DNA from: an uncultured Nitrososphaerales archaeon
GTDB taxonomy: Archaea; Thermoproteota; Nitrososphaeria; Nitrososphaerales; Nitrososphaeraceae
Reading direction: 5' to 3'
NCBI GenBank assembly: GCA_963695855.1
Contig: CAVOHZ010000010.1
Location: forward strand, 1,248,001-1,312,000
Length of the DNA: 64,000 nucleotides
Both the position numbers and the translations under genes were made by a program. Below, in pieces: positions 43,401-61,258 of the stretch (position 1 is the first letter of the stretch; each line of letters starts with the position of its first letter). The notes under the pieces were generated by a model. It did no database searches, was not told where the DNA came from, and saw nothing but the letters and a program-made list of their open reading frames with translations.

Positions 43401-43680
43401 AGTTCTGTTAATTTACTATAAATTCAACTCTTCGTGCATCTCAACTATGAAATGATTTTCAAATGTTTTACCACTATACATAGAAATACAGAATTGTATA
43501 CAGTTATGTATTTGAAACAATTTTCAAATAATGAATGCAAATACTGTTTCAATCCAATCACGTTGCTTACTTGTGGACATCATGTACCATAATCGGTGTA
43601 AACTGGATATTTTCCATATCTTGACACAACTGATCTAATAAATTTTCCGCAACTACATGTTGTAACTTGAGATATAGATT
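43401..43680 (-). mobile_element. 3' half of a split IS6 element
   Basis: Reverse complement matches IS6 from AATCTATATCTCA onward (VAENFIRSVVSRYGK, NVIGLKQYLHS); TIR-like AGTTCTGTTAATTTA at 43401. Confidence 0.78.
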
Positions 43681-43709
43681 TAAGTGACGAATTTGTACTT
43701 TAGATAGAT

Positions 43710-45119
43710 ATGCTGTCTGCCTTGTCTTCGTCGTCGTTAAGAACAACAGCAAGAAAGAAGCTTAAAAAGGACTCATATACGTCCAATTATACCCCTTACG
43801 ACAAGTTTTTTCACTCGATACATAGTGACTCTACGAAAATAATGTATTCTTTTTGTTTAAAAAGGTTCCTAAAGTTCTGCAAATTTACAAAATATGAACA
43901 GTTATTGCAGATTTCTAATAAAAAGAAGGAAGAAGCAATAAGGGACCATATCATGTATTTGTTACACCATGAAAAACTGTCGTATTCAAGCATTAACAAC
44001 ACCGCTGCAGCCATTAAACATTTTTACGTTCTAAATGGAGTACGTCTATTACTTTGGGACGAGTTAAAGAGTCTAAAGGGAAAAAAGAAATCTGTAATAG
44101 TAGATAGAAAATATACTCCTGAAGAACTTAAAACATTAATTGAGTATGCGGACCTGCGTGAAAAAGTAGCAATTCTTACCATGCTTTCTTCGGGGATAAG
44201 GGTTGGTGCACTTGCAGACCTGCGTATTGGTGACCTAACATACAATGAAGAATACAAACTTTACAGGATTGTAGCATACAGTCAAGATACCGCTGAATCG
44301 TATGTAACTTATTGTACCCCCGAATGTGCTAATTATATCAATCTGTATTTGGAAGATAGAAAGAAGGGTGGCGAGACTATCACACCTGATTCACCACTTA
44401 TCACACACAAGATAAATTCAAAATCTATGAACAAAGAAAGTAAGGGTTTCATGGGTTCTCAATCTATTGAAAAGTTGTTGGACCGTGAAAGACATGACGC
44501 TAAGGTAATATCTCGTACTACAATGAAGGAGCTAAAGAAGAGAGTTGCTGCAGAAGAACAGAAGGGTAAGGGTAGTGGTGGTAAGGGTAAGACTAAAGGA
44601 CAATTAATTAGGAAGGAAGTAATGCGTACGCATGGATTTAGAAAAATTTTCGATACTGCATGTGTTGATTATGGTGTTAATCCTGTAATTAAAGAAGTAT
44701 TAATGGGACATAAAACCAAGTTGGGTTTGGATACAAGTTACTACAGACCAGGAGACGAAAATCAACTAATGCAGGAATATCTCAAAGTCATTGACGCATT
44801 AACGATAGACGACACATATAGATTAAGACGTAAGACTGAAAAACTTGAGAAAGAAGTTGAAGAAATCAATCTTTTAAAACGTCAACTTATGGAACTTGAG
44901 AAAGACAAAAAAGAGTATGAAGAAAAGACTAAGAAAGAAATAGACGCATTGTGGGAACTTAATGAAAAGCGGGAAATTGATATTTATAAAGAAGCCGTAG
45001 AATTTGCAACAAAACCAATTTCTTATGAGAAATATAAAGAACGAGAAAAAAGAAAATTAGAAAGAAGAAAGATTAATTTTTTACCAGAAAATAGAAGATG
45101 GAAAAAAATAAAAAAATGA
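43710..45119 (+). CDS. int: Tyrosine recombinase / integrase
   Basis: SGIRVGAL (R), HGFR (HxxR), LMGH and TSYY (Y); C-terminal coiled coil. Confidence 0.92.
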   Translation: MLSALSSSSLRTTARKKLKKDSYTSNYTPYDKFFHSIHSDSTKIMYSFCLKRFLKFCKFTKYEQLLQISNKKKEEAIRDHIMYLLHHEKLSYSSINNTAAAIKHFYVLNGVRLLLWDELKSLKGKKKSVIVDRKYTPEELKTLIEYADLREKVAILTMLSSGIRVGALADLRIGDLTYNEEYKLYRIVAYSQDTAESYVTYCTPECANYINLYLEDRKKGGETITPDSPLITHKINSKSMNKESKGFMGSQSIEKLLDRERHDAKVISRTTMKELKKRVAAEEQKGKGSGGKGKTKGQLIRKEVMRTHGFRKIFDTACVDYGVNPVIKEVLMGHKTKLGLDTSYYRPGDENQLMQEYLKVIDALTIDDTYRLRRKTEKLEKEVEEINLLKRQLMELEKDKKEYEEKTKKEIDALWELNEKREIDIYKEAVEFATKPISYEKYKEREKRKLERRKINFLPENRRWKKIKK

Positions 45120-45201
45120 TTATAAACAATCATTCATTCATTCATTGTAAGAAAAAAACATAAAAAAAATTTAGTAAAATTATAAATTTAATTTAAAAAA
45201 A

Positions 45202-45570
45202 TTAAAAAGAATAGTCGTCTTCCAGGTAAGATTTTGATTCTTCTTTATTCGTACTACTAACTTTTAATATATCTGCAGGTAATTTCTCAACTTCCTGGAT
45301 TGTATTGAATCTAATACCAAATTCTATTGCAAAGATATGTTTACACCTATCTGTTCTATTACTTTCAAAGTCTTTGCAACTGCACCATTCAAAAACTGAA
45401 GGTTCATAACGTACGAAGTATTAACGTGAATCACTACTTTCAGATTCTACATAATACGTGTTTTTCTTGTTCTGAAGGTGGTAGATATTGCGGGAGAGAG
45501 CGATTGCCCTTGCTCTCCCTTCTCGTCTATTCTTTGATTTCTCAATTGTTTTAGAAACTGTTTGTTTCAT
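45202..45570 (-). pseudogene. SWIM zinc-finger protein with internal TAA
   Basis: MKQTVSK...YYVESESSDSR*YFVRYEP..WCSCKDF...RCKHIFA; missed by the ORF track. Confidence 0.8.
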
Positions 45571-45687
45571 TGGTATAGTATAGTTGGTATAATTCTTATT
45601 TAAAGTATATTATTAATGATACGTATAACTTATATACCGATTAGTATAAGTGTAGTCATGGAAAATAGTATATTGGGTACTAATAGC

Positions 45688-45822
45688 ATGGTAAAGACTA
45701 TCAAAATCAGTGAAGACATACACACCAGACTTTTGAAAGTTGGTTCAATGGGAGAGACGTTTGAAGACGTTATTGAAAGGTTACTGGATTTTTATGAAAG
45801 TAAAGGGAAGTCTCAGAAATGA
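45688..45822 (+). CDS. Small ribbon-helix-helix (CopG/antitoxin-like) protein
   Basis: MVKTIKISEDIHTRLLKVGSMGETFEDVIERLLDFY. Confidence 0.8.
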   Translation: MVKTIKISEDIHTRLLKVGSMGETFEDVIERLLDFYESKGKSQK

Positions 45823-46091
45823 TAGACAATAATAATACCAGCAATAAAGACAGCAGAAGACATGGAAGGATTTATAATAAGAAAGAACTAAGGGAGAATT
45901 TTGAGGATATAGACGATATCTTACAAAACTTTGAAATGCTGTTACAGGAATTAATAGGAGAGCTGGATATAGATAAAGAAGAAATCAATACCGAAGAGGT
46001 AAGGAGCATATTGAAAGCGATGGAATATTTATGCGATGACCTTGACGACTCACCTCTTATTAATAAAATGAAACAGAATGAGTCAAAATAA
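45819..46091 (+). CDS. Acidic hypothetical protein
   Basis: ATGA overlap with the RHH gene. Confidence 0.7.
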   Translation: MIDNNNTSNKDSRRHGRIYNKKELRENFEDIDDILQNFEMLLQELIGELDIDKEEINTEEVRSILKAMEYLCDDLDDSPLINKMKQNESK

Positions 46092-46566
46092 TATTTATCC
46101 AAAAACCTGTTCTTATGGGTGTGGTTTACAAATCTACTGGAATACTGCAGAGAATACATTTTTTGAAGTTTTAACACAAAAGAAGCATATTTGTCCTAAC
46201 AGCAGAAAACCTAGTACTCCAGCTAATACTACTACAGGTAATTCATATAATTATAGTAAAAAACCCTGGTTACCAAAACAGAAAATGTCTAATTCCTTTG
46301 AATTACTTTCTGGTACGATTGCAAGTGTACAGAGACAATATGAAGTTCTGTCGGATATCGTTATAGAACTTAATGGTAAGGTACATGGTTCTCAAAGGGA
46401 TAGAGATTCAAGAACCGGTATGTTAGACTTGCTGGTATATTATGAAGTACTTGAAGGTAAGAGAGACGAAGTAAAGAGAAGGTTTGAATTTATCAAAAAC
46501 AAGCCTTCTTCGTCTACTAATGCTGCTAGTACCTATATTCCAAGTGGTAGTAGTGTAGCAGCCTAA
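46078..46566 (+). CDS. Hypothetical protein with N-terminal Cys/His zinc-binding motif
   Basis: CSYGCG...HIC; overlaps the previous gene. Confidence 0.72.
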   Translation: MSQNNIYPKTCSYGCGLQIYWNTAENTFFEVLTQKKHICPNSRKPSTPANTTTGNSYNYSKKPWLPKQKMSNSFELLSGTIASVQRQYEVLSDIVIELNGKVHGSQRDRDSRTGMLDLLVYYEVLEGKRDEVKRRFEFIKNKPSSSTNAASTYIPSGSSVAA

Positions 46567-46607
46567 TGTATATATATACTTAAACTCCTAGTAGTAGTGT
46601 AATACGC

Positions 46608-47126
46608 ATGAAGGCATTATCAGACAAAGCGAAGGTTGAACAGTTAACGGATACGCTTGCTGACCTCCTTCGTCCCAGCGATGAGGAAAATAGGGCCACA
46701 GAATTAAGTTTGTGGAAGGTATGGGCTTATCATTGTTACCGTTGTAATTATCTCTGGTTTCCTAAAGATTATGATTATGGGCTTGATAATCCCATTCTAA
46801 ATATGACTCCTCCTACGTCATGTGCCAGGTGTAAATCAAAATACTGGAATAAGATTCCACAAAGAAGGACAAAGAATTATGATAATATGCTTGCACTTCC
46901 CAGAATAGTGGCATTGAGTTTGAAGTATTTTCTTGATAGGTTTGGCAGTCCTGAAGAATTCCAGAAAGTGTATAGGGAATTCATGGCACGTAATCCCTAT
47001 ATAAAAGATAACGTAGAATTTGACGAAGCGTTCAGAAAAGAATTCGATACCCCTGACAGGATAATAATATCTAGAAATGTGAGAGATATAATTGATAGTG
47101 CAGTAGAGATAAGAAGAAATAACTAA
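46608..47126 (+). CDS. Zinc-finger hypothetical protein
   Basis: CYRCNYLW...CARCKSKYWN. Confidence 0.75.
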   Translation: MKALSDKAKVEQLTDTLADLLRPSDEENRATELSLWKVWAYHCYRCNYLWFPKDYDYGLDNPILNMTPPTSCARCKSKYWNKIPQRRTKNYDNMLALPRIVALSLKYFLDRFGSPEEFQKVYREFMARNPYIKDNVEFDEAFRKEFDTPDRIIISRNVRDIIDSAVEIRRNN

Positions 47127-47681
47127 CTAAAAATTTTTATCCTAATCCTTTCTTATTTTCATTGTTATTATTGTGTTGGGAACCAGAAAACTAAACAGTC
47201 TTCATAAAGTGGACCAGGTTAGAGTTATCCAGTTAAATGAACAGATATATCAGAGATAGAGAAATCATTTTAATGAGTTTCACTGTGGACCCGAAGATTT
47301 ATGCAATAATAAAGTTACTACGTATGAGGATATAATTATCAAGATATTAGACTTTTACGAAGAAAGGAATCAAGTCTTATTAGTTACCAAAAAAGTTCTC
47401 TATTCTTGAACACTTAAATACTAACACTTAAATAACTGTGATGGTATATTATAGTTAACACCGAAATCTCTATAATGTATTTTTGCGGCACTAACCTTAT
47501 TAAATCTAATGCAGAGAGAAAAAAAGAAGTATATGACATAACCTATGGAGAATCTTCACGCCCATTTGGTGGATAAATTTCAAGAACAAAATAATTAAGT
47601 GTTATAACAGTAGTAAATAAATAAAAAATAAGATTATAATATATAACCTTTGTAGTTTTTATTGTCTGGTTTCTCTAATGT

Positions 47682-47750
47682 AGGAACCTTGACGATACTA
47701 TCAGAAAACTACTAGATTTTTATGATAGTAAGGAGAAATCACAGAAATGA
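47682..47750 (+). pseudogene. RHH paralog remnant (C-terminal helix only)
   Basis: RNLDDTIRKLLDFYDSKEKSQK*, ATGA-coupled to 47747. Confidence 0.65.
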
Positions 47751-48259
47751 CTACTAGCGACGACGACAATAATAACAATAACGATGAAGAAGGTAAGGTA
47801 ATTCTGGATGAAGAAGGTCTGGTAATTCTGGATGAAGAAGGTCAGGTAATAATTCTGGACCCTAAGCGTAATAAGGTAATTGAATTTGTATTCGAACAGG
47901 GCGGTAAGGAAGGTAGTAGAAGAATATACATTGATGAAAAATGTCGTTGGTATTGTATAGCGGCTTCTCTGAAAGATGCGAAAGAAGGTAGGGGTAAATT
48001 CTATAAATATACTGATTTGGGCAGAAAATTATTGTTGGAAGTTTTCGCTGAATTAGATAAAACAGGTCATTTTAATGATAAAGCGATCTATAAATATACT
48101 GATTTGGGCAGAAAATTATTGTTGGAAGTTTTCGCTGAATTAGATAAAACAGGTCATTTTAATGATAAAGCGATAGAAGAAGATTACTTCTCTGATATTG
48201 TGGTTAGAAAGTGTATTGATATGATCAAAATCAAAAATGACCTATCAGATCTTAAATAA
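47747..48259 (+). CDS. Hypothetical protein with internal tandem repeats
   Basis: Three DEEGxVI(I)L units and an exact 29-aa duplication. Confidence 0.7.
   Translation: MTTSDDDNNNNNDEEGKVILDEEGLVILDEEGQVIILDPKRNKVIEFVFEQGGKEGSRRIYIDEKCRWYCIAASLKDAKEGRGKFYKYTDLGRKLLLEVFAELDKTGHFNDKAIYKYTDLGRKLLLEVFAELDKTGHFNDKAIEEDYFSDIVVRKCIDMIKIKNDLSDLK
48001..48174 (+). repeat. Exact 87-bp tandem duplication
   Basis: CTATAAATATACTG...GATAAAGCGAT repeated at 48001 and 48088. Confidence 0.95.
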
Positions 48260-48384
48260 AATTTCAATTTTATTAAATATTTAATATTTTTTTATATGCA
48301 ATATAATTTTTTAAATATACTTTTATTCTAATCTTCTTTTATTTTCTTTGTATAGGTGGTAGTGGTCCGTAACGTGGTGGCTGA

Positions 48385-48555
48385 TTGGGTAGAGTTGTAG
48401 CGGAAACAAAAGAAGGGAAATTAATTCAGATAGAAAATGAGACTTTTGAAAGAATGAAGGGAAACAGTGTACAATATGGGAAAGTAGAATCTGTTGACGA
48501 GATAATGAATAGACTACTGGATTTTTATGACAGTAAGGGAAAATCACAGAAATGA
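48385..48555 (+). CDS. RHH paralog (56 aa, TTG start)
   Basis: KLIQIENETFERMKGNSVQYGKVESVDEIMNRLLDFYDSKGKSQK. Confidence 0.75.
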   Translation: MGRVVAETKEGKLIQIENETFERMKGNSVQYGKVESVDEIMNRLLDFYDSKGKSQK

Positions 48556-48644
48556 CGTTTGGAGTGATTGAGCAATGGGTTATAGTAATTGCTCTTATTA
48601 CTGCAGCAGTTTGCTATATATCGGCAAGTAAAATGTGGGATTGA
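48552..48644 (+). CDS. 30-aa single-TM microprotein
   Basis: MTFGVIEQWVIVIALITAAVCYISASKMWD; ATGA-coupled to the RHH gene. Confidence 0.5.
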   Translation: MTFGVIEQWVIVIALITAAVCYISASKMWD

Positions 48645-48744
48645 TCAAACGGCAAGAACAAAACTGAACGCAATAAAGAATAAAATCTAAAAATTACAAG
48701 ATTTGCAAAATCTTATATCATAGGTTTTTAATCTATAAGTCGAA

Positions 48745-48903
48745 ATGTCAGTAGGAAAGTCATATAGATTTGAGGAAATCAAGTTATTTTGTTCGGATTG
48801 TAAGGGAGATAATGATCTAACTGGAGAACTTACAATCTATAAGGGAGATTTAGTTTGTAAACAATGCTTAGAGAGTAGAAAGGAACCCCAATCAACCTTC
48901 TAA
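48745..48903 (+). CDS. 52-aa zinc-finger microprotein
   Basis: CSDC...VCKQC. Confidence 0.6.
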   Translation: MSVGKSYRFEEIKLFCSDCKGDNDLTGELTIYKGDLVCKQCLESRKEPQSTF

Positions 48904-48960
48904 AAATTTTTATCCTAATTTTCTTTATAAATAAAAGTACTGGCTAGAAGATATGCAGGG

Positions 48961-49149
48961 TTGGGTGTAAGTACAAGGTTACGTGTTGTAAGTACTAATG
49001 GTAAGAGTAGCAGTAAGAAGAAGGTTGTTATGAAGATATCAGAGAAGACTTTTGAAAGGTTGAAAGAGAATAGTTTTCAGTATGGTGAAGTGGAATCTTA
49101 TGACGAGATTCTTATCAGACTATTAGATTTTTATGAACAAAGAAAATAA
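48961..49149 (+). CDS. RHH paralog
   Basis: VMKISEKTFERLKENSFQYGEVESYDEILIRLLDFY. Confidence 0.78.
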   Translation: MGVSTRLRVVSTNGKSSSKKKVVMKISEKTFERLKENSFQYGEVESYDEILIRLLDFYEQRK

Positions 49150-49178
49150 ATAAAAAAGGAGGTTGCTCCTTTGACATG

Positions 49179-50077
49179 CTAATTTCCGACAGGGAAAGAC
49201 TCTCCATTTATTTTAAGGACCGAGGAGGTTGAGATAGAAGATGCGTCCAACTCTTGGATTGTAATTGAATTTGTTGCTGTACAGGTCTGTGTTTGTCCCG
49301 CCGCTATTGTTCCCGTTGTTATGAAAGCACTGATGACTTCATCACAATCTCCTGTATATGATACAATAAGAATGGCTTGGCGGGGTGGATCGTCATGAGA
49401 TTGTATCCAAGCAATGACTTCGGTGATGTACTGCCCGAAATCTTCTATTACTTGATAATCACCTGGATTCAACGTTACGACTGTTCCACTAGTAGAACCG
49501 GGAAATTCAGAAGATGGATTTGGATTGTTACCATTCACTTGGAAAGGAAAATCACTTTCATCTACCGTTGATAGTAGGTCTTCACAATCACCTTCAATTT
49601 CGTCTGTACAGTCAATTTGTTTAGCAACCGTCAAAGTCGTTGGTGGTGGTAATTGTACCTGTTCGTTGTCATTCACATTTACACATATATTTACAAGATT
49701 CCTGTCGAAGTTTATTTTATCGAGTCCGTTACCATTTTGTGCGTTTGCTGCGTCTGGACCTGCTGTTCCTTCGTTCGCTGCTGCAGTAGCAGTAGTGTCT
49801 TCAGGTATTTGGGTAATATCTATTCCATTGACATTTATGTTACTGTTTACACAGGATATTTTCTGATATCTCCATGAGAACTCTTTTTTTGATGGTTATC
49901 ATAACTATATCTATTGCCGTCTTGGTAATAGTTGCTATCATATCCGTAATGATTGTCGTACATTTGTGCACCTGCGTTTGTAATTGTTGAAAGGTTTAGA
50001 GCCAGTATACTTGTCGCTAGTATTGCTCTCAGTATAGAAGCAAAAACTATAATTCTGTTGTTATTATTATTGCTCAA
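49179..50077 (-). pseudogene. Secreted protein, frameshifted near 49862
   Basis: Signal-peptide ORF 49847-50077 continues in another frame (KISCVNSNINVNGIDI...) into ORF 49179-49676. Confidence 0.7.
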
Positions 50078-50316
50078 TACATTGTTAAATACGAATTTAA
50101 TATATCCTAGGTTGGAAGGAACATTATCTAATCTTGTAATATTTCAAGATTCTGAATGATTGACAAGAAGAAGAATAGAAAATGATGTTAAGGTAGAAAG
50201 TTAAAACTCCTAGATAGAAAATCATACGAGAACGACAAGTAATATGGGTCGAGTAACAATTAGACTAATTAAATTTCGTTAAAAAAAAGAAATAGATGAT
50301 GGTTGGAGTAGGTGTT

Positions 50317-51108
50317 TTACACTGGAGGGAAAGTACCTACAGTCCTTAGACAATCAACAATCGCATCTATATCTGCCTGTTCTATACTAGCAATACTATC
50401 AAGTTCCGATCTAAGGGCTTGTTCATTTTTGAATTGGTCAAGTATTGCACAATATCCGTCAAGATTCCGTGTTGGAAATCCTGCTAAGAACGTTGCTAGA
50501 TCCGCTTCTTCTTGGTCGTCTAAGATACTTGTAAAGCATTCTTGACATGTTTCTGGGGGTGGTGGGAATAGTACTGGTAATAATGCTTTTTCGAAACAGT
50601 CAAAGAGACCTCTTACAACTCTATCGATATTTGTATTTGTTTGTAATAGTACAGCATCTTCTATTATTTTCAATGCATCTACAGGAGTTACTGTCTCAGT
50701 TACAAGAAAATCAAGAGCAAGTTCTAGGTTTTTACAAATATCAAATAGTTGTGCGGTATTATACTCAGCGTCAGGTGATCCGGTCGTTAAACATGTTGCT
50801 CCCGAAACTGTTGGTTCGGTATCATCTACACAATTAATACTATCAAAATTAACAAAATTTATTGCATTAATCAATGCATTAAGAAGGGTACCTGTTTGTG
50901 CAGCATTCAAGAAATGTAACCAATACTTTACACATTCTTCACATATTATTTGTTCATCCGTTAACTCAGGTGGAAGTACTGTCGGGGGATCTGCTGAAGC
51001 TTGATTAGTGGATACCTGCATTGCCGATATCGGCTTTGACATGTTCATAGTGGTTGCCAAAAAAAGCATAACTACTAGAGAGAGACCTAAGATATTTGAT
51101 TTGTGCAT
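50317..51108 (-). CDS. Secreted Cys-rich hypothetical protein
   Basis: Signal peptide; repeated CEEC / CQEC helical units. Confidence 0.78.
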   Translation of the reverse strand: MHKSNILGLSLVVMLFLATTMNMSKPISAMQVSTNQASADPPTVLPPELTDEQIICEECVKYWLHFLNAAQTGTLLNALINAINFVNFDSINCVDDTEPTVSGATCLTTGSPDAEYNTAQLFDICKNLELALDFLVTETVTPVDALKIIEDAVLLQTNTNIDRVVRGLFDCFEKALLPVLFPPPPETCQECFTSILDDQEEADLATFLAGFPTRNLDGYCAILDQFKNEQALRSELDSIASIEQADIDAIVDCLRTVGTFPPV

Positions 51109-51885
51109 TGTTCTTTTACTATTTTATATATATATTAATCTAAGGACACATTTTTCTCTAAATTTATGACAAAAATTATTTTGAGTCAGTTACTTTAAAA
51201 TAATCAAGAATATAATATAATAGAAATCTTATAAAAAGATTAAAGTTTAGATATTTCTAGTATTTTCATTAATTAATTTATAGCTGTTATTATTACAGAT
51301 ATCTTTTTCATCATCTTGATAGTTAGTCTTATCCTTAAAACTATCTATTTGTTTCTTTGATTTGAGATAATATATTAATTAAGTTCTGATAATAAAAAAT
51401 AAACATATGGTAATAGCATATGTATAGTAGATTCTTATTTCAACACAGCTATCCATTATTGGTATTAGTCTTATATATTAATTATAAAATTGTTGCAATT
51501 GTTTCAAGGTAAGATTAGTGAATAAAAATTTCCACGTTCGCCTGATCTAAAGTAATAATAAAAAGTAGGAAAATTTGGCCGTTTTACTTAATTACATATA
51601 AATTAATTATAAATATGAATTTCTATCCCATAGAAAGAAATTTGAATATACCTTTAATTCCCTGAAAATCAACGGTTATGAAGAGTGCATCTAGGAGAAC
51701 CACAAACGATTATAGTGTCTCTATTAAGGACGTGAATCATCATAGTCATTCTTTTTATACTCATAAATAAATAATATCATTGTGGCTTTTTTACACAAAA
51801 AGAGTGAAAATTATAAAGAATAAAAAATAGTAGATATAATTAGTTCAAAATAGCAATTATAAAAAATAGCACCAAACATATTTTA

Positions 51886-53334
51886 TTATTCACTGGTGAC
51901 GAATTTAACTCCTTTCAACAGCAAACGAAGTGCGTCCAAGTCATCGTTGTGGACACTCACATTTTTGTCAAGGTTCCATTCATTAGCGTAGGCAGTCTTT
52001 AGCGACAGGATTAATCTATCGAATCTGAAAGGTATAGCGAGTTTCTGTTTTGTTAAAAGTTGATATGTATGTTCCAGCATTTGTTTATGTTCTTTTGCAA
52101 AGGATACAGGTATCACAATGTTGAATTCAGGACTCACGTTCTCAGAGCGGTCCCAGTCTAAACTCTCACCGAATTTGGATTTACATTCATTAACTGCAGC
52201 CCGATTACTTCCATCCACAAACCACCATAGATTAGGGATTTCAGTATGGAGTTGAAATATACGATCACCGATTACAGAAGGAGTTGTTTTGTCATGTTGC
52301 TCACCCAGGACGATTTTAACTATTTCATTTTCTGTATCTAATTCTGCAATGTATATAGTTGTAATGGATGTAGAGAAGCCGAAATCGATCCCGCCAATAT
52401 GGAGACAGTAATTATTTAATGGTAAATCCTTGTATTTTTCCCCTAGTTGTACTGCCCTCTCTATGTCTTCAATTGCAAAAACGTTCCCAATTTTTCCTAA
52501 ATATTTTAAATCATATTCTCTATCAAATGAAGGACTTTGCTTTGCTCTCTCTATATCTTCAATAGTATAGATTTTATTCAAGCCATAACGGTAGTCAAGT
52601 TTGATTCTCTTGTATAGACAAATATCTTCAGGTTCCTGTTCTATAGTCTGCATTAATCCCCCAGGTGCATTAGGTGTTGAAACCATAACGATAAAGGGAT
52701 TTGATTTACCAATGTATCTCTCTGCTACCGCTCTTACATCCTCCTGTTCTCCCTTTCTAAAGAAGTCGCATTCGTCCAGGTAGATAAATTTAGGGTTATC
52801 CAATGAACGAAATGAATCGATATGGTTCGAGGGATACGCTTCTATCCTGCACTTCTTTAACTCTAATACAGTTTCTTTAGTATCAAATGTAATATTATGA
52901 AATTTATTCATAAACATATTCTTCATACGTTTTACAAGTTTGATTGCTAAATCTATGTTTGGACCTGTAACTATAACCATTTGTGAATCCTGATAGGTAT
53001 TATCTCGTAATGCAAGATAACACATGTATCTTAAGAATAATTCACTAATTCCTAAACCAGTACTTTTGAGAATCCATAGACACTTATCATATTCTAAACT
53101 ATCTAAAACAATTTTCTCATAATCGAATAATGGTTTTTCAATATTATCTTTTCTTGGAAGTGATAGGATATGATTAAAACAGCAATTACCACTTGTTAAA
53201 ATGTCTTCGTTTCTATGTTCTGTAATATCCCATATCCAGAATGGTTTACCCTTGAATACCTGGAATTCAGAATATTGTGTTTGTTGGTTCTGTTGTCCCT
53301 GGCCTATTAGTTTCTGTAAATCCTTCCAACCCAT
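51886..53334 (-). CDS. terL: Terminase large subunit
   Basis: ATPase: KSTGLGISE, IYLDE (Walker B), VSTP; nuclease: GGIDFG ... DDLDAL. Confidence 0.82.
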   Translation of the reverse strand: MGWKDLQKLIGQGQQNQQTQYSEFQVFKGKPFWIWDITEHRNEDILTSGNCCFNHILSLPRKDNIEKPLFDYEKIVLDSLEYDKCLWILKSTGLGISELFLRYMCYLALRDNTYQDSQMVIVTGPNIDLAIKLVKRMKNMFMNKFHNITFDTKETVLELKKCRIEAYPSNHIDSFRSLDNPKFIYLDECDFFRKGEQEDVRAVAERYIGKSNPFIVMVSTPNAPGGLMQTIEQEPEDICLYKRIKLDYRYGLNKIYTIEDIERAKQSPSFDREYDLKYLGKIGNVFAIEDIERAVQLGEKYKDLPLNNYCLHIGGIDFGFSTSITTIYIAELDTENEIVKIVLGEQHDKTTPSVIGDRIFQLHTEIPNLWWFVDGSNRAAVNECKSKFGESLDWDRSENVSPEFNIVIPVSFAKEHKQMLEHTYQLLTKQKLAIPFRFDRLILSLKTAYANEWNLDKNVSVHNDDLDALRLLLKGVKFVTSE

Positions 53335-53758
53335 TGCTATTCCCTTTAGATAATATTCTTTCCTTTGTTGATTCTACAAATCTTATTGAATCCTGCAGTA
53401 AACCGGCATTAGTTAATAATTCCATTTTAGTAGAATAACATTCTTTAATCAATGCTAATGATTGTAACTTGATTTTTATGTCACCTTCTTTTTCTGCCTT
53501 TTCTGATATTATCCATAATTGTTTATTAATTTCCTGTAATCCCTTCAAACAATTTTGATACTCATAAGGTAACGTTTTCTGTATATGGTTCTTTATGGTT
53601 TCTTCTGCTTCTATCTTCAACTGTGCAACGTCCCTGGATACTGCAGACTTGTCAATAGATAACATGCTTGCAATTTCAGACTGACAAAATCCCTTAATCA
53701 TTAATTCGTCAATTTTGTTTCTACGCCATTCTAACTGTTGTTTCCTAGAAGTTGTCAT
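53267..53758 (-). CDS. Putative terminase small subunit (HTH + coiled coil)
   Basis: QSEIASMLSIDKSAVSRDV HTH; directly upstream of and overlapping terL. Confidence 0.65.
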   Translation of the reverse strand: MTTSRKQQLEWRRNKIDELMIKGFCQSEIASMLSIDKSAVSRDVAQLKIEAEETIKNHIQKTLPYEYQNCLKGLQEINKQLWIISEKAEKEGDIKIKLQSLALIKECYSTKMELLTNAGLLQDSIRFVESTKERILSKGNSNGLEGFTETNRPGTTEPTNTIF

Positions 53759-54235
53759 TCTTAGATTTTCCTTTTCAATAATTATATGGTTTCATTACTT
53801 TTGTCTTTTTCTACTCTGGGAATCATGGGATTATTGTTAGATTTATAGATTTCTAGGAAAAAAATATTGAAAATCAATATCCTAAAAAGATAAGATATTA
53901 ACAAGTTAATAGGTTACAAGGCTTCTTCTGGGGACCTATACGAAAAATATCTTCCAGACTTTGAAAAGATGTTAAAATCGTTCAAGTGGATAGATTGAAA
54001 ATAATTAAAATGATTTTGAATTAAAATAAAAAAATAAAAAAATAAAAGCAAGAAATAACAGGTAAATAAAAATATCTAGAGAATTGAGTTTTGGACCAAG
54101 TTTATTTATTTTAAAGATTTACAAATGAATTATTGATAGAATATTTCATTATGAATATATATCATGTTATTACGATAGGAAAGAGATTGAGAAGAGTTAA
54201 TACGTGCCTCTTTCATTGGTATATTTTCTTTTGCT

Positions 54236-54877
54236 ATGATCTTTTCCTCTATTATGACATATACAGATGAACAAAAGGCATACGGACAATCTAGTAATTT
54301 TACTAAATTTACTTCAAAGGATTTAGAGACAGCAAAGGAGGCAGCAAAACAGGCAAAATTAAGAGAATTTATCTTGGAAATTCAAGGTGTTAGCACAAGT
54401 AATCCACAGGTTACACAATTCCAAATTTCTGGAGATGGTAACAAAATCTGTAGATCTGGCAATTGTAAATATGAATTTGGCACAATAAATATATCATTGC
54501 CAACTGTCGAAAATACTGGTCTTACTCTACGAATAGATTTTCAGTTATATGATCAACAATCACAAAAATGGGAACTATATAGCATGACCAGTCTTTCCGG
54601 TATAAATGAGACAGATATAAGTAATCTAATTTACACATTTAATGAACCTCTAGGATCTCTCAGGTTGCACCCTGCAGAAAGTGAAAATCCAATCGATCAA
54701 TCTCTTGATGAAGATGGATGGTTTAATTGGTGGAATGAAAATACTTGGTATTATGATACAGGACCTGTAGAGTATAGATCAGGTGAAGATCGCTTAATAA
54801 TGACCGGCACTTTCAATGGTCACGACGTCCCGACGTATGATAGTGATGATATACAGGTGATTAAATTATTTGATTAA
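54236..54877 (+). CDS. Hypothetical (probably secreted) protein
   Basis: 213-aa ORF with AYG signal-cleavage-like site. Confidence 0.65.
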   Translation: MIFSSIMTYTDEQKAYGQSSNFTKFTSKDLETAKEAAKQAKLREFILEIQGVSTSNPQVTQFQISGDGNKICRSGNCKYEFGTINISLPTVENTGLTLRIDFQLYDQQSQKWELYSMTSLSGINETDISNLIYTFNEPLGSLRLHPAESENPIDQSLDEDGWFNWWNENTWYYDTGPVEYRSGEDRLIMTGTFNGHDVPTYDSDDIQVIKLFD

Positions 54878-55035
54878 CTAATTCGTTTTTTAGAAAATAG
54901 AATTTTGTTATAATGTATAGCCCTTATAATTTTTATTGTCTTTATCTAGTCTGGGAATATCGACAGGATTATCATTAGTCAGACCTATGTCTTCCATTTC
55001 TTATGATATCTTTGATTGGAATTGTTGGATAAGTT

Positions 55036-56172
55036 TCAATCGTTGCCATTAATTGAAACCCCTATTCCTTTAATGACTAGCAAAGAGTACAAATTACTAT
55101 GATTGGTTTTTATCTTCTGTCTACTCATTGGACCGTACTCTTTGTTTTGTGCGTTTCTCAGTGCTTGATTAATTCTCTTATCGATATACCACCAACCGCC
55201 TAACTTCCTTAATGACTCACATTTCTGCAACCACTCTTTAATAATCTGTCTAACTTCGTTATCCGTTAACCCTTTTATCTTGACAAGATAAGGAACTAGA
55301 ATCAACTCAACAATTTCTTTTCTGCAGTCGTCAACCGGTGTTTCTAATAATCTCTCTATCCAGTTGTAATAATTATGGAAATTATTTCCAAAATTATTAT
55401 TATGATTTTTTCGTTTCCACTTTTCTAATTCCTTTATTTGTTTTTCCTGTTCTAACTCAAAGTCTATCTTCTTTTGTATCAGATATTCGTGAAACATGGT
55501 AAACAGTTCTTTTGTAATTGTAGGACGGTATCCGTTCCATTCCTGTATAATTTTCACTGTAACGTTATTTTTGGAATTAATAGAACCTGGAATCCTTAGA
55601 AGACATGATCTAAAAGACGGATTGTGGGACTTGTCTGCTTTATTGTCCGATAATAAAATTTTTGCAAATCTTAAAAATTCTTCTGCAGGATTACCATTTA
55701 CAATTAGTCTAGAATCTGCAAATTCCCTAAATCTCTGATTTATCAAATAGTCATTTACAGGACAGTTTACAGGTTGTATTACGTGATAACCATTACCGGA
55801 CCATAGGACGGTAGGTTTTGTGTTTTTACCAAAATATTTCGAAATATTTCTTAGTATGTGAGCTTTCGCAATATCTAACTCATTCTTTCTAGATTTGAAG
55901 TCCGATAAATCCAAGTCAATGAAAAACAAATCTGGAATCCAGGATTTACCGTCTCTCAATAATGGAAATGCGTTAATTCTACAATCTATGAACTTGGAAT
56001 CTAAAAATGCTATTATTATCTCGTCCATATTGTCAACTTGGAAAGTTCTGTTACTGGATTCGTATGTTGAGATTTTACGTGGAAATACAGGTTTTGAAAG
56101 GTGATTTAAAATAAAGTCTAAATCTTGGGATTCAGATAATTCCTTTCTTGAAATGGTTTCTAGGGTTGTCAT
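55036..56172 (-). CDS. Archaeo-eukaryotic primase fused to a PriX-like C-terminal domain
   Basis: FIDLD (motif I), SGNGYH (II), LRIPGSIN (III); C-terminal WIERLL.TPV.D.RK..V.LIL.PYL. Confidence 0.78.
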   Translation of the reverse strand: MTTLETISRKELSESQDLDFILNHLSKPVFPRKISTYESSNRTFQVDNMDEIIIAFLDSKFIDCRINAFPLLRDGKSWIPDLFFIDLDLSDFKSRKNELDIAKAHILRNISKYFGKNTKPTVLWSGNGYHVIQPVNCPVNDYLINQRFREFADSRLIVNGNPAEEFLRFAKILLSDNKADKSHNPSFRSCLLRIPGSINSKNNVTVKIIQEWNGYRPTITKELFTMFHEYLIQKKIDFELEQEKQIKELEKWKRKNHNNNFGNNFHNYYNWIERLLETPVDDCRKEIVELILVPYLVKIKGLTDNEVRQIIKEWLQKCESLRKLGGWWYIDKRINQALRNAQNKEYGPMSRQKIKTNHSNLYSLLVIKGIGVSINGND

Positions 56173-58193
56173 TCCCAGGGATTTCCTTTGAACTCTACTC
56201 GTTCACCATTTTGCTTCATGGTATTGATTAACGACTTGCTTGGTTGTGCTGGTTTTTTTGCATGAAAATTCAAACAGTGTTTTAGGTGTTCTTTTTCTGT
56301 CGAAAATTCATTATCGCAATAATTGCATTTGTATTGTTGGGGGAAGGTATGTAAAGTATCGTCAATATCGTCCAATCGTCCAGAGTCCTCATTTTGAGCG
56401 TGATTTTGACTGTTTTCTTTGGACGATACTTTGGACGATATATTTTCACTATTTTTAATATCGTCCATTTTTTCACCCTGATTTTGAGCGTGATTTTCCG
56501 TTTTTTGACGGTTTGACGATATTGACGGTATTATACATACTATTTCTATTACCCTTTTTCCTTTATTGTCCTTCTTTCCAATTTCAATCAGAAATCCGCG
56601 TTCTCTAAGATTTGTCTTTGCTTCATTTAATCTGCGTGTGAGTACGTTGGGTGCTTTGGGAAATGAAGTGACTTTGGAAATATTTATTTTTAAATCTCGT
56701 ACTGCAATGTCTTCAAGTCGTGTTAATAATTCGCTTGAAGTACCACTCCATTTTTCTTTATATTCTACTATGTTACCGTCTTCATCTTGTTTATCAATCA
56801 TAAATATGATAAGTGCTTGGGATACCGCACTTTCTGCAATTGCTTCCTCAATCTGGACGTTGATATTATCTTGGTAGACTCTGAGAAACTCACCTTCTTT
56901 ATTACCCAAACACTGTGAAATTATCTCTCCATATTCTTCAAAATCCGCCATTCGGTTAAGTCCCTTTTCAATCGTAATTCCCCCATTTTGTTTAACCTGG
57001 AGAACCTTCACCAGAATATTGAAAAGATATCCCAGTAGTTTGGGTCTCATGGCTTCAAATTCGTTCCAGATATCTTCTTGTTTTCTTCTATTTTCTTTGG
57101 GAATTCTTTCTAGTTTTATAATAATACTTCTATCTAATAGGTCGGGTTTTGTTGCTCCTATGTTGATACCGTTAATACCCACGCATCTTTTAAAGGAATA
57201 GATTATGTCGTCATCATCTGTATACAATTGTCTCTTTGAGAATCCACTACCGGTTACAGCCCTGCATAATGCGTCAGAAACCCAATCATTTATTTTTGAA
57301 ACATTATCAAAATATGCGATATAGTTGTGGGATAGTTTCTGAATAAGTTCGTTGATATCTCTAGGAAATGTTAGGGTTTTGACGCTACTAGGGTCTATTA
57401 ACATTCTTATCAGCTCCTGAAATGTAGATTTTGCACTCCCTTGTTCTCCGTATAGTAGATTGACTGGTTTAGAAATGTCGGGAATTAATAACGAAACAAT
57501 CTTTACCTTTACCAATAATTTTGTGTCCTCGTCCGCTATGTTCAGAAGACTAATAAATTTGTCTAGAAGTGGTTCGTCGTATTCCTCTGTCGGTAAAATA
57601 GGAGTAACCTGGGGTAATTGACTGCTAAAATGTCTAAACAGAATGGGAGGAGTTTTTTCTATTGTCCAACCTTGCGGAGTTATCTTTATTACGCTTCCAT
57701 CGTTATTTACCAAGTCATAATAGAACGTATACTTATCTTCGTCCGTCCTTGCTACTCTTAATTCCAGTCTTTTGATAATACCATTAAATTCTGCCTTTGA
57801 TTGCACATAGTCTATGATATTATTTTTTTCCTTTTCCTTGAGTACAATTTTATACTCACTGTCGTAAAATAATTTGAATATGTATCTTTCAAATTTGTGA
57901 CTTGTTAAAGATATTGGTTCGTAATGTCCATCCTTTATTTTCACACATCCAAATAGTTTACCGTACTGGTCTTTGAACAGTAACTTAATGTGAGTATCCG
58001 CATAAGCAAAAAGGATTTCTGTATTATTCTCTCCTTCGTCTTCTTCTTCTTCGTCTTCTTCTTCGTATTCTGCTGCTGATTGCGATTTTCCGTTTTGTTT
58101 GTTGTATTCTTTTAAAATTTCTAACTGGTTATCGTTAAGAAGTCTTCTGCATTGCAGCTTCGATTCATTATCATTTATCCCGTACTCGTTCAT
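56169..58193 (-). CDS. Replicative helicase-like P-loop ATPase with C-terminal C2H2 finger
   Basis: GEQGSAKS (Walker A), AYFDNV (Walker B), DLLDR; CNYC..H...H; ATGA overlap with the primase. Confidence 0.75.
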   Translation of the reverse strand: MNEYGINDNESKLQCRRLLNDNQLEILKEYNKQNGKSQSAAEYEEEDEEEEDEGENNTEILFAYADTHIKLLFKDQYGKLFGCVKIKDGHYEPISLTSHKFERYIFKLFYDSEYKIVLKEKEKNNIIDYVQSKAEFNGIIKRLELRVARTDEDKYTFYYDLVNNDGSVIKITPQGWTIEKTPPILFRHFSSQLPQVTPILPTEEYDEPLLDKFISLLNIADEDTKLLVKVKIVSLLIPDISKPVNLLYGEQGSAKSTFQELIRMLIDPSSVKTLTFPRDINELIQKLSHNYIAYFDNVSKINDWVSDALCRAVTGSGFSKRQLYTDDDDIIYSFKRCVGINGINIGATKPDLLDRSIIIKLERIPKENRRKQEDIWNEFEAMRPKLLGYLFNILVKVLQVKQNGGITIEKGLNRMADFEEYGEIISQCLGNKEGEFLRVYQDNINVQIEEAIAESAVSQALIIFMIDKQDEDGNIVEYKEKWSGTSSELLTRLEDIAVRDLKINISKVTSFPKAPNVLTRRLNEAKTNLRERGFLIEIGKKDNKGKRVIEIVCIIPSISSNRQKTENHAQNQGEKMDDIKNSENISSKVSSKENSQNHAQNEDSGRLDDIDDTLHTFPQQYKCNYCDNEFSTEKEHLKHCLNFHAKKPAQPSKSLINTMKQNGERVEFKGNPWE
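56357..56530. repeat. Iteron-like cluster (candidate replication origin)
   Basis: About 9 copies of GACG(A/G)T(A) in both orientations plus 17-bp ATTTTGAGCGTGATTTT at 56391 and 56481. Confidence 0.6.
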
Positions 58194-58416
58194 TTGTTCC
58201 CAGAATAGTATAAAATTCTTAGTCCAGTTTTTGCGGTTTAATGTCCAATTAATAGGACCATTTACCTTATGATTTGGGAAACTTCTATTATGTCCGTAAT
58301 TCTGTTAAATGTTGCACGTTCAAACAATCCAGTCTTTTTCAAATCGTCGTTTATTACAAAATTGAAAATTTCTACATTTTCGTTTTCATTATTATTTGCT
58401 TCTGTATTAGACATTT

Positions 58417-58716
58417 CTAAAACTCTCCCATATTGTAGATTTTTACCAATTCTTCAATCAAATCGCCTTTGAGGTAAACTTGCCCCTTTCTAGGACCAAA
58501 TTCTTCACTTTGTTTTGTTTCTTCATTGTGTTGCGGTGAGTAAATCGAGTTCTCATCTACAATATTGCAAATTTCATATTTTGAGTCTAGAATTTTAACT
58601 AATTCACAAACAGGACATTTACAAGTATCACATGTGAAACTTTTTATTCGATTTTTAGGTTTGGACAAGGTTATACAACTCTCCCGTATGCTACAAGTGG
58701 AGATACAAAAGAACAA
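58417..58716 (-). CDS. Small Cys-rich hypothetical protein
   Basis: CDTCKCPVC; co-oriented with the replication genes. Confidence 0.5.
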   Translation of the reverse strand: MFFCISTCSIRESCITLSKPKNRIKSFTCDTCKCPVCELVKILDSKYEICNIVDENSIYSPQHNEETKQSEEFGPRKGQVYLKGDLIEELVKIYNMGEF

Positions 58717-58951
58717 GATTTCCCAATGCCTAGGAGAGCGGTAGGAGAGAAAATTCTGAAATTTTTGAACTTTCTTCCTTTAGTAGTACAAAAGCTATTT
58801 ATCTGTGAAATGTTATAATTCATTTCAAGAGACACGCCAGTGTTGTAATGTTGAGGTTAAGACCCTCAAGGAAGAAGAACTCTCGTCGCTGCTAATAACC
58901 GCTGTTGTGTGGACTGCGCGTAGGCCTGGAATCCTAGCAGTCCATGCGAAA

Positions 58952-59155
58952 CTATGTAACGTGATTTTTAACCTCCTTCTCGACTAAATCAAAAAGTTTA
59001 CCAAGGGCGTCGTCGTACGTATCCCCGATATTTCCCAACCTTCGCAATTTTTTCTTATGTTTCATTGAAATGACAATATGCGTCATCTCGTCATCTTCTT
59101 CTTCTAATTCTCTTCTGCCAACCTGGTGGTCGACAGTTAAAAGACTTGCAATCAT
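58952..59155 (-). CDS. RHH-like regulator
   Basis: THIVISMKHKKKLRRLGNIGDTYDDALGKLFD. Confidence 0.72.
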   Translation of the reverse strand: MIASLLTVDHQVGRRELEEEDDEMTHIVISMKHKKKLRRLGNIGDTYDDALGKLFDLVEKEVKNHVT

Positions 59156-59283
59156 TTAATTGAATTAAATTAATTACCGCATTATAAGTTGTTCTTTTTC
59201 TTAGAATTCTTCAGCAACATATTGGATTTTACGCACGAATCATTAAATCAACCGTATACCTAAAGGACAGGCTTTACTGTTTA

Positions 59284-59508
59284 ATATAGATTCCAAGGAC
59301 AGAACTGTGTATTGGTTCAATACAGAACCATAACCCGAAATGCAGGCTAGCGATTTGAATATCCATTTCATGTGTAATAAAAATAGATACTCTTTTTCTT
59401 TTATAGATCTGACATGATCCAAATCTTTGCATCCAATATGACAGACACGTAACCCATTTCTAATGCTTGTATTACTAATGCCATGGAAATATTTCTTAAG
59501 CTCAACCA
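59284..59508 (-). mobile_element. 5' half of the split IS6 transposase
   Basis: Reverse complement reads QRFGSCQIYKRKR...LWFCIEPIHSSVLGIY and ends at CTTGGAATCTATAT. Confidence 0.8.
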
Positions 59509-59509
59509 A

Positions 59510-60532: not shown

Positions 60533-61258
60533 TTATTTCTTCCCTAAATTTATAGTCTCATTGTCTATTGGAGCTAACTTGAACAGTTCCTGGTCATTTT
60601 GCTTATAATCTGATCTTTCTTTTATTACCAATTCACAATCTGATTCAGAGATATCACCCTGAGTTGTATTCAAATTAACTACTACATCCATCCCATCTCC
60701 ACATTGAAAAATATCCTTGCCATTACCGCCAACAAGCAGATCATTTCCATTTTCTCCAAAAAACTTGTTTACATCCTTTGAATTTGTAGAAGCAAAATCT
60801 CTAAGCCAGTCATCCCCTTCACCTCCATAAAATTCATCATTGCCTCTGTAACCCACCAATATGTCGTCATTTAAACCACCAATTAAAACATCTTTTCCAT
60901 ATCTAGTTTCATTAAAAACCTCACTTGAAATATCGCCAACAATTGTATCTGCTCCCTCTCCTCCAAAAATAACATCATCCCCTCCCATTCCACGCAAATA
61001 ATCTGAGCCTGTCCATCCATATATTATATTGTTATTATTATTTCCAGTAATCTCATCATCGGTTTCATCCCCAGTGCAGATCAGCACACTCTTATCACAC
61101 CAATATTTTATTCCTTGTACTTCTTTGAAGAAATAAACTCCAGTTGGAACAACTACCAAAATTGATATTATAATTACTGATATTACCTTCATCTTGATTA
61201 TCATTACTCTTGGATTTTCCCACAAATAAATAAACCGTTCGTTTATTGAAAGTATCAT
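60533..61258 (-). CDS. Hemolysin-type (RTX) calcium-binding protein
   Basis: GGxGxD repeats; N-terminal TM. Confidence 0.88.
   Translation of the reverse strand: MILSINERFIYLWENPRVMIIKMKVISVIIISILVVVPTGVYFFKEVQGIKYWCDKSVLICTGDETDDEITGNNNNNIIYGWTGSDYLRGMGGDDVIFGGEGADTIVGDISSEVFNETRYGKDVLIGGLNDDILVGYRGNDEFYGGEGDDWLRDFASTNSKDVNKFFGENGNDLLVGGNGKDIFQCGDGMDVVVNLNTTQGDISESDCELVIKERSDYKQNDQELFKLAPIDNETINLGKK

Follow-up and report, generated by a model that had tools for sequence, protein, structure and literature searches.

The element described here occupies positions 43672-59292 of the window, a 64,000-bp stretch (positions 1,248,001 to 1,312,000) of contig C10 (CAVOHZ010000010.1) from the genome of an uncultured Nitrososphaerales archaeon (GCA_963695855.1), and its gene content suggests a chimera of a plasmid-like integrative backbone and a packaging module acquired from a tailed archaeal virus. 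The source genome, designated G000, comprises 3.55 Mb on 11 contigs, has a GC content of about 30 to 32% per contig, and is 99.87% complete. The element carries a tyrosine integrase, a primase, a P-loop ATPase, and adjacent genes for a small (TerS-like) and a large (TerL) terminase subunit. As the initial annotation of this region had stated for the element, no capsid, portal, or tail gene was found by sequence methods, either in the element or in the 99.87%-complete genome. In our judgment, there is an even chance that the element is a satellite of an archaeal tailed virus that depends on this helper for packaging. We put slightly less trust in the broader proposal of a lineage of plasmid-derived head-tail-virus satellites in soil Nitrososphaera-related archaea, each with its own TerS and TerL, some with an additional small protein, cl14, and none with a capsid or portal.

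The terL gene (51886-53334, minus strand) is intact and encodes a protein of 482 amino acids (aa), of which residues 65 to 468 match the PHROG family phrog_2 (E value, 7.5e-24). Its sole match among 50,697 phage records is the annotated TerL of the provirus Pro-Nvie1 (38% identity, covering 89% of the element protein). This match to a Nitrososphaera provirus, together with the relatives of the element, makes the thaumarchaeal affiliation named in the initial annotation probable. No Pfam terminase model matches it, with only DEAD being detected at 22.7 bits, under the cutoff of that model, and a sequence search against the PDB gave no meaningful matches. In an alignment of 11 TerL proteins from capsidless and proviral loci, K90, G95, D187, and E188 are invariant and G93 is nearly so; we take K90, G93, and G95 to form the ATPase P-loop and D187 and E188 to form the Walker B acidic pair. 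D317, D374, D456, D464, and D467 are also invariant and presumably represent the acidic residues of the C-terminal nuclease. Judged from the profile match and the conserved residues, ORF (open reading frame) 51886-53334 is a genuine terminase large subunit, the identification on which the initial annotation depended. The start of terL is overlapped by 68 nucleotides (nt) by a gene encoding a 163-aa helix-turn-helix (HTH) protein (53267-53758, minus strand), which is regarded as TerS-like from its position, its size, and a Pfam HTH_38 match with an E value of 0.015. The large subunit and the gene overlap predicted earlier are therefore borne out, and the small subunit is a candidate named from position, size, and a weak HTH match. 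Genes for homologs of this TerS-like protein immediately precede terL in elements B and K, in genomes G138 and G229, and in metagenome contigs L131 and L151. Downstream of terL, an AT-rich, ORF-free stretch of 777 bp (51109-51885) precedes the cargo genes; it corresponds to the place of the portal gene in viruses, and no remnants of a portal gene or of cl14 and cl15, two genes that follow terL in some related loci, were detected within it. The stretch is a candidate location for a pac or cos site.

The element is delimited by the 9-bp direct repeat ATATAGATT, with core copies at 43672-43680 (attL) and 59284-59292 (attR). This 9-mer occurs 130 times in the genome, which makes it weak evidence for the ends when taken alone, and no direct repeat longer than 9 bp linking both ends was found. 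Stronger evidence comes from the flanking DNA. The sequences at 43515-43680, ending in the attL core, and at 59284-59509, beginning with the attR core, are the left and right halves of a single copy of a repeat of about 710 bp, as indicated by blastn (about 11 copies), and at the other genomic places that match both sequences, the two matches abut. The repeat is an insertion sequence (IS) encoding a DDE_Tnp_IS240 transposase (Pfam; 31.9 bits for an intact copy versus the 27-bit cutoff), for which an IS census counted approximately 45 near-full copies with 70 to 87% identity in the genome. When six intact copies were aligned with the window halves as an empty-site control, they were uninterrupted across the junction and contained one ATATAGATT core. 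Because the intact IS paralogs are continuous across the junction, the element is bounded and inserted into an IS copy, and this copy, its integration target, has since decayed. The insert is 15,603 bp in length, or 15,612 bp counting one core, which agrees with the bounded 15.6-kb element and the circle size that had been predicted. An intact IS copy of this type is present at C8:188222-188929 (L119), and a further fragment lies in the window at 38576-38998.

Imperfect inverted repeats adjoin the core; the one next to the integrase gene is CGAATTTGTACTTTAGAT, and its counterpart at the far end is ACCTAAAGGACAGG. The integrase-side terminus (43681-43709, plus strand) holds CGAATTTGTACTTTAGAT, which resembles the GAAGTTGTACC termini of the sibling elements G and H. 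These siblings have clearer inverted termini, GAAGTTGTACC and GGGTACAAATTTC, and longer att repeats of 18 bp and 14 bp. The GC content of the element is 33.2%, compared with 28.7 to 29.1% in its flanks. Integration into a tRNA gene was considered and rejected, since ARAGORN finds no tRNA in the window. RTX calcium-binding repeat proteins are encoded on both sides of the region (40356-40949 and 60533-61258), and this protein family has about 20 tblastn matches genome-wide.

The integrase gene (43710-45119, plus strand) reads inward from the left end and encodes a 469-aa tyrosine integrase matching phrog_1 (1.5e-12). Its match to Pfam Phage_integrase (1.9e-5, 24.9 bits) is under the 27.1-bit cutoff, and its match to NCBIfam XerA (2e-15) covers the N-terminal part only. 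The motifs GIRVGA, HGFRK, and SYY are present and align with those of its paralogs in the family alignment; we assign to them, respectively, the catalytic Arg, His-x-x-Arg, and Tyr of tyrosine recombinases. The integrase placed at one end in the initial annotation is thus confirmed by a family match and a full set of these residues, and five paralogs are found at other TerL loci in the genome. At the other side of the terminase genes, a 378-aa primase (55036-56172, minus strand) contains a C-terminal PriX-like domain, as indicated by matches to Pfam PriX (3.3e-12), NCBIfam primase_PriX (1e-18), and PDB entry 4wyh, which is PriX (2.3e-7), and we infer that its N-terminal part is the catalytic domain. 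The genome contains five copies of this primase, all five beside TerL loci. The adjacent gene (56169-58193, minus strand) encodes a 674-aa P-loop ATPase with a C-terminal C2H2-like Zn finger, which matches Pfam AAA_5 at 0.016 and is a putative replicative helicase. Its nearest clusters in the Atlas are an "ATP-binding protein" cluster (0.91) and another cluster (0.88) in which 25% of the members contain PriCT_1; a sequence search against the PDB found no relative, and in metagenome contig L143 the gene immediately preceding that of the primase encodes a homolog with 38% identity. Of the replication genes named in the initial annotation, the primase is therefore well matched, and the "helicase" is established only as a P-loop ATPase beside a primase.

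The absence of structural genes was examined across the entire genome. When the 19 proteins of Pro-Nvie1 were searched against it, TerL alone was matched, apart from one unrelated match on contig C3. PF05065 (Phage_capsid) and PF04860 (Phage_portal) have no matches in the genome, and the same searches were positive in 4 of 14 control genomes. Nine proteins of the virus record L065, which represent its head module and flanking genes, gave only one match, the small cl14-like protein. Two ORFs of the element that could have concealed a capsid or portal fold, those beginning at 50317 and 54236, have no family match in Pfam, PHROG, or NCBIfam. AlphaFold2 single-sequence models of these ORFs are too poor for a fold search, with a mean predicted local distance difference test (pLDDT) score of 48.8 for the all-helical model of ORF 50317 and 34.0 for that of ORF 54236. 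The stronger argument that they are probably not capsid genes is their nonconservation across the family, with ORF 50317 occurring at two family loci and ORF 54236 at one.

The element, designated E, is one of a family in this genome. Its TerL protein matches 19 pieces, which group into 12 loci, all on contig C10. Full-length TerL is encoded by a single ORF in E, G, and H, and copy I lacks about 40 N-terminal residues. ORF clustering across the 12 loci reveals a recurrent order of an integrase belonging to one of two families, a SWIM-like gene, a ribbon-helix-helix (RHH) gene, variable cargo, in some loci cl15 and cl14, then TerL, TerS or c3, the primase, a small gene, and the P-loop ATPase. 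The siblings G and H are approximately 13.4 kb and 11.7 kb in size, respectively. Selection on the terminase genes was assessed by the Nei-Gojobori method from the nonsynonymous (dN) and synonymous (dS) substitution rates. For terL, element E and copy I differ with a dN of 0.110 and a dS of 0.652, a ratio of 0.17; I and H give a ratio of 0.05 with dS near saturation, and the TerS pairs give ratios of 0.17 to 0.23. Both terL and terS are under purifying selection between capsidless copies.

Elements G (L055, C10 at about 1488.30-1501.69 kb) and H (L056, about 1520.80-1532.47 kb) lie in inverted orientation with their flanks exchanged. The genome contains exactly two copies of their 18-bp att repeat, one at each element and in inverted orientation, and their TerL proteins have identical C-terminal halves. 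This pattern points to a recombination between G and H that inverted about 32 kb of the chromosome. A small protein of about 150 aa with a Zn finger, cl14 (L055:8829-9308 and L065:7887-8306), is encoded after TerL in complete virus records and in many capsidless elements, and it may be a third packaging factor. Another protein, cl15 (about 225 aa; L055:7468-8148), follows cl14 in capsidless elements only and is missing from element E; searches of Pfam, PHROG, and the PDB gave no match for it, and it does not resemble the minor head protein of the viruses.

Relatives of the terminase are present in other members of the class. TerL matches (E value of ≤1e-10) were obtained in 30 of 301 class genomes, including 23 of 39 in family f1, 4 of 180 in f2, and 2 of 9 in f3; the unpublished genomes G231 and G132 are counted here, and G326, likewise unpublished, is counted in the primase tally given below. 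Sixteen regions from 12 genomes were scored with the element, family, and Pro-Nvie1 proteins. G138, a genome of the same genus, has four loci consisting of TerS or c3, TerL, and cl14, followed in some by cl15 and accompanied in places by an integrase or ATPase, and none of the four has a portal or capsid match. G229, which belongs to another genus, contains two TerS-TerL pairs without head genes. Portal, capsid, and tail genes are present in three regions (L044, L045, and L047), which are proviruses of the Pro-Nvie1 type, and the remaining fetched regions hold TerL alone or are short contigs. In addition, L042 (G122:C21) and L043 (G200:C41) contain Pro-Nvie1-type p1-TerL pairs, whose TerL proteins are 63 to 66% identical, with no portal or capsid match in the 4 to 7 kb downstream; capsidless terminase loci may thus also occur in the other TerL clade. 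In metagenomes, the primase profile detected 52 contigs, most of them short, in which the ATPase-primase pair recurs, and contigs L131 and L151 carry TerS-TerL after the primase.

The initial annotation had treated relatives with capsid and portal genes downstream of terL as the sign of a deleted provirus. No such genes follow terL at the 11 other loci of this genome, the four loci of G138, or the two of G229, but the distant Pro-Nvie1-type proviruses and the 55- to 60-kb viruses described below do have them. Of the gene order that it proposed to look for without capsid genes, the TerS-TerL pair recurs in G138, G229, L131, and L151.

In IMG/VR, a profile scan detected 55 loci, and a tree of 48 TerL proteins is divided into two main clades, A and B. 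Clade B contains the Pro-Nvie1-type proviruses and many viral contigs. Clade A contains all capsidless copies together with the virus records L064, L065, L071 (= L067), L066, L069, and L112. In a 21-row tree, the G138 element copy is the sister of L065/L071 with a support of 100/100. The monophyly of the capsidless copies, a group defined after the first tree, is rejected at a cost of 238 log-likelihood units (p-AU, 5.7e-6). The TerL identities are 47% between the element and L064, 40% between the element and L065, 46% between the element and the G138 copy, and 50% between the G138 copy and L065. Since capsidless monophyly is rejected and the capsidless copies lie among virus records, the phylogeny indicates that terL has probably been exchanged repeatedly between viruses and elements.

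Among these viruses, L064, L065, and L071 share an order of a TerS-like gene, TerL, a cl14-like gene, an ORF of 506 to 525 aa, an ORF of 217 to 263 aa, and further conserved ORFs. The ORF of about 500 aa scores 0.98 to portal clusters when compared by features with the Atlas, where 19 of the 30 hits belong to the portal set, which is a lead and not proof of its function; comparison of this ORF family (A2) with Pro-Nvie1-type portals (A3) gave an hhalign probability of 0.8%, and A2 matched nothing in the PDB. The 217-aa ORF matches phrog_115 (1.5e-8), a family of minor head proteins, and a 387-aa ORF of L065 is expected to encode the HK97 capsid protein. The complete records among these viruses are 55 to 60 kb in size; CheckV rated three of five as 100% complete, and two of five have direct terminal repeats, one of them 100% and the other 72% complete. 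The element is about one-quarter of that size, and the GC content of L065 and L071 (33.5%) is close to its own. None of the five virus records contains a relative of the element primase or integrase, and for this reason the element, on the evidence of its genes, is not a simple deletion derivative of a Pro-Nvie1-type virus or of a 55- to 60-kb virus.

From these genes we infer a cycle of excision, replication, and helper-dependent packaging. The integrase would excise a 15.6-kb circle at the ATATAGATT core, and the primase and P-loop ATPase would replicate it. The TerS-TerL complex of the element would then recognize and cut element DNA and pump it into the procapsids of a coinfecting tailed virus, for which the candidate helpers would be the 55- to 60-kb viruses whose TerL genes are interspersed with the element copies in the phylogeny. 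Such a satellite would supplant the entire helper terminase and not TerS alone. The terminase is likely to be in use because the module recurs on several backbones and in several species, is under purifying selection, and has been exchanged repeatedly with complete viruses. Filling procapsids is the known use of a terminase, and since only the procapsids of a helper virus would be available to this element, its terminase points to a satellite.

Several observations weigh against this interpretation. TerS is identified mainly by position, with only one of eight family members matching the PHROG small-terminase family, and the TerL copies are truncated, frameshifted, interrupted, or fused at 8 of the 12 loci. 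Two genes of the element itself are broken, a SWIM-like gene by an in-frame stop and a c1 cargo gene by a frameshift, and the element may possibly no longer be active. The backbone also often occurs without the terminase: metagenome contigs L121 and L148 carry the primase, c10, RHH, SWIM-like, and integrase genes without terL, and the primase is found in 26 of the 41 f1 genomes searched, including all three of genus g2, where TerL was found in none of eight. These contigs and genomes reveal that the backbone is broader than the terminase; the replicon and integrase constitute a widespread integrative plasmid-like family, and TerS-TerL is a module on a subset of this family, which in G138 is carried by elements whose replication genes differ. 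IMG/VR scans, run with TerL alone or with the primase profile, detected nothing related to the element type. Episomal, circular, or virion-fraction copies were not found either, and none of the primase-profile metagenome contigs has terminal repeats. Searches for capsid, portal, and head-module genes found no helper virus in the genome. The genome has three CRISPR arrays with one shared 30-nt repeat and 31 spacers (C8 at about 550.9-551.6 kb and about 583.6-584.2 kb and C10 at about 1185.5-1186.3 kb), and none of the 31 spacers matches a TerL element or a fetched virus locus. Finally, the selection measured here could have acted while the terminase genes still resided in viruses. One CRISPR spacer has a near match at C3:303179-303213.

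Some of these points lead to other explanations. TerS-TerL may have been retained for a different job, such as interference with tailed viruses through competition for procapsids or cutting of DNA, that is, defense, or the processing of concatemers formed during replication of the element. The purifying selection on the pair and its repeated occurrence without capsid genes attest to a function of some kind without saying which, no helper resides in the genome, and known satellites combine interference with transfer, according to the part of the literature consulted (PMC9618062). We nevertheless consider this explanation unlikely: the terminase is complete and has retained its ATPase as well as its nuclease columns, so that packaging is the simplest function to assign to it, and the repeated exchange of terL with complete viruses fits a common use of the same capsids. 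No described defense system built on TerL was found, PADLOC not having been scanned.

It is equally improbable, in our assessment, that the terminase genes are inert leftovers of recombination between a provirus and an integrative plasmid and are now decaying, as has been proposed for the element NitKor-E1. The broken TerL copies, the two pseudogenes in the element, and the existence of the backbone without a terminase would all be expected of such a relic, and NitKor-E1 is taken as a likely relic by its authors in the published passages on it (PMC6563490). Decay is difficult to reconcile with a dN/dS ratio of about 0.17 for terL and terS between capsidless copies, with the intact catalytic columns, and with a module consisting of TerS-TerL only that is carried on different backbones in three species and in metagenomes. 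Moreover, the fragment always begins at terS and ends at or just after terL, which random decay is unlikely to repeat. An autonomous small virus with capsid proteins too divergent for recognition is very improbable: several ORFs have no family match and the models of ORFs 50317 and 54236 are poor, but the unmatched ORFs show no family-wide conservation, are all shorter than 265 aa, too small for a portal, and the siblings of 11.7 to 13.4 kb carry the same core with no spare room.

Satellites of tailed viruses are well known in bacteria. The satellite interpretation can be compared with phage-inducible chromosomal islands (PICIs) and Staphylococcus aureus pathogenicity islands (SaPIs), which resemble the element in having a terminal integrase, regulators, a packaging gene, and a replicon with its own primase/helicase, in lacking structural genes, and in being a fraction of the size of the putative helper. 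Classical PICIs encode at most TerS and use the TerL of the helper, as they are described in the consulted portion of a 2022 preprint (10.1101/2022.09.08.507074), whereas the element brings TerL as well, so the departure from classical PICIs suggested in the initial annotation stands. The backbone of the element has no homology to PICIs, and its dependence on a helper is putative. The same portion of that source describes capsid-forming PICIs (cf-PICIs), which, like the element, have their own TerS and TerL; unlike it, they also encode a capsid, protease, portal, head connectors, and HNH, and the helper supplies tails only (10.1101/2022.09.08.507074). The element has neither the head genes that characterize cf-PICIs nor the combination of HK97-fold major capsid protein (MCP), portal, and TerL that characterizes a Caudoviricetes provirus. 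Pro-Nvie1 (Nitrososphaera viennensis, FR725450), whose TerL is 38% identical, differs from the element in having portal, protease-MCP, and tail genes after terL, in having no integrase or primase, and in the placement of its TerL in the other main clade.

In Archaea, the only satellites described before were pSSVx and pSSVi, according to the relevant passages of a 2025 preprint (10.1101/2025.02.15.638363), and a 2026 preprint, in the section consulted, adds one putative Asgard satellite (10.64898/2026.08.12.739948). The pSSVx/pSSVi plasmids and the haloarchaeal SRCE elements, which the 2025 preprint adds as candidates, are, like element E, archaeal plasmid-derived replicons with a partial virus module that are thought to ride in helper virions. 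As those 2025 passages describe them, they parasitize spindle-shaped viruses and carry an AAA+ ATPase and/or a spindle capsid protein (10.1101/2025.02.15.638363), whereas the element is integrative and carries the terminase of a head-tail virus.

The direct precedent is NitKor-E1, a cryptic integrated element (CIE) of "Candidatus Nitrosopumilus koreensis" AR1 reported by Krupovic et al. in 2019 (PMC6563490). In the passages of that report dealing with it, NitKor-E1 has, as the element does, a tyrosine integrase and adjacent TerS-TerL genes with no other tailed-virus gene, and the function of its terminase is called enigmatic (PMC6563490). It differs in being a single case from another family with VapBC and a restriction endonuclease, and no primase-helicase is mentioned in those passages; this comparison is based on the description only. 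The element, unlike NitKor-E1, belongs to a family with many copies and several host species, for which the att sites are defined, selection is evident, and viral relatives of the terminase have been identified. It falls within the operational definition of a CIE as applied to NitKor-E1 in the same passages, having an integrase and no set of virus or conjugation signatures (PMC6563490). Locus L054 in genome G008, which contains an integrase and two TerL-like ORFs at 24 to 26% identity, may be of the NitKor-E1 type. No description of a family of capsidless TerS-TerL elements was found in the literature searched, nor was any description found there of "motor replacement," that is, a complete terminase of its own, for a bacterial satellite. 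What is new here is therefore a satellite-like integrative element with a complete terminase as the putative hijacking module, for which NitKor-E1 is the precedent.

The remaining genes of the element encode regulators and cargo. Next to the integrase gene is a SWIM-Zn-finger-like gene of cluster cl11 (45208-45570, minus strand), which has an in-frame stop and shows 59 to 65% identity by tblastn to intact copies in G, H, and F; the copy in element G matches Pfam SWIM at 0.0069. It is followed by a 68-aa RHH protein gene (45616-45822, plus strand) of the DUF7557/VapB-antitoxin-like type (Pfam DUF7557, 1.6e-7), whose cluster, c2, is found at 7 of the 12 TerL loci. Three small genes lie on the plus strand within 45819-47126, encoding proteins of 90 aa (45819-46091), 162 aa (46078-46566, Zn-finger-like), and 172 aa (46608-47126, with a CxxC...CxxC pattern). 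They have no family match, their paralogs occur in other elements and at C8:215-217 kb, and the cysteine patterns in their translations suggest Zn fingers. A 2.3-kb segment (46071-48410) is 93.6% identical to an isolated fragment at C8:215381-217738 (L120), near which there is no integrase, TerL, or primase match. The cluster c10 gene (47747-48259, plus strand; 170 aa) is 97% identical to copies carried by elements A and K and by metagenome contigs L121 and L148; it contains an exact 87-bp in-frame tandem duplication (48000-48173), the unit of which is also present in other copies of the gene. Two more RHH genes of the c2 type follow on the plus strand within 48385-49149 (48385-48555 and 48961-49149), as identified by tblastn and by Pfam matches to DUF7557 (5.9e-5) and RHH_10 (0.015).

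On the minus strand, a secreted cargo gene of the c1 family (49179-50077) is frameshifted into two ORFs, as intact homologs of 277 and 359 aa align in two frames. ORF 49847-50077 encodes the signal-peptide-like N terminus and 49179-49676 encodes the remainder; the family has 23 tblastn matches genome-wide. The neighboring ORF 50317-51108 (minus strand) encodes a 263-aa Cys-rich cargo protein with a signal-peptide-like N terminus, whose homologs occur only in element K (97%) and at C10:76.7 kb. In total, three minus-strand genes of the element encode signal-peptide-like N termini. The gene list of the initial annotation thus stands for RHH proteins, supported by DUF7557, and is corrected for the SWIM-like gene, which is stopped, and for the secreted c1 gene, which is frameshifted. 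Between the terminase and primase genes, the orphan ORF 54236-54877 (plus strand; 213 aa) has no paralog and no family match and lies within a cassette of about 0.9 kb. The two flanks of this cassette (window 53937-54986) are contiguous at C10:1208679-1208831, and the cassette looks like a separate small insertion within the element. At the far end, two small minus-strand genes within 58417-59155 have no Pfam match; ORF 58417-58716 encodes a Cys-rich protein of 99 aa, and ORF 58952-59155 encodes a protein of 67 aa that appears RHH-like from its sequence pattern.

With these elements, the oddity represented by NitKor-E1 proves to recur as a module under selection, with ends that are defined, numerous copies, and viral relatives that can be identified. 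They also provide a testable system, in which candidate helper genomes (L064, L065, and L071) are at hand and the att junction is known to the base. The recombination suggested for G and H, with about 32 kb inverted, indicates that elements of this family may reshape the chromosome of their host. If the satellite interpretation is true, the element would represent a new route of virus hijacking in which the whole packaging motor is replaced, and it would rank with the first archaeal satellites known for tailed viruses, with the exchange of terL marking the 55- to 60-kb viruses as the helper group. It would also point to satellite-mediated gene flow in the soil archaea of this group.

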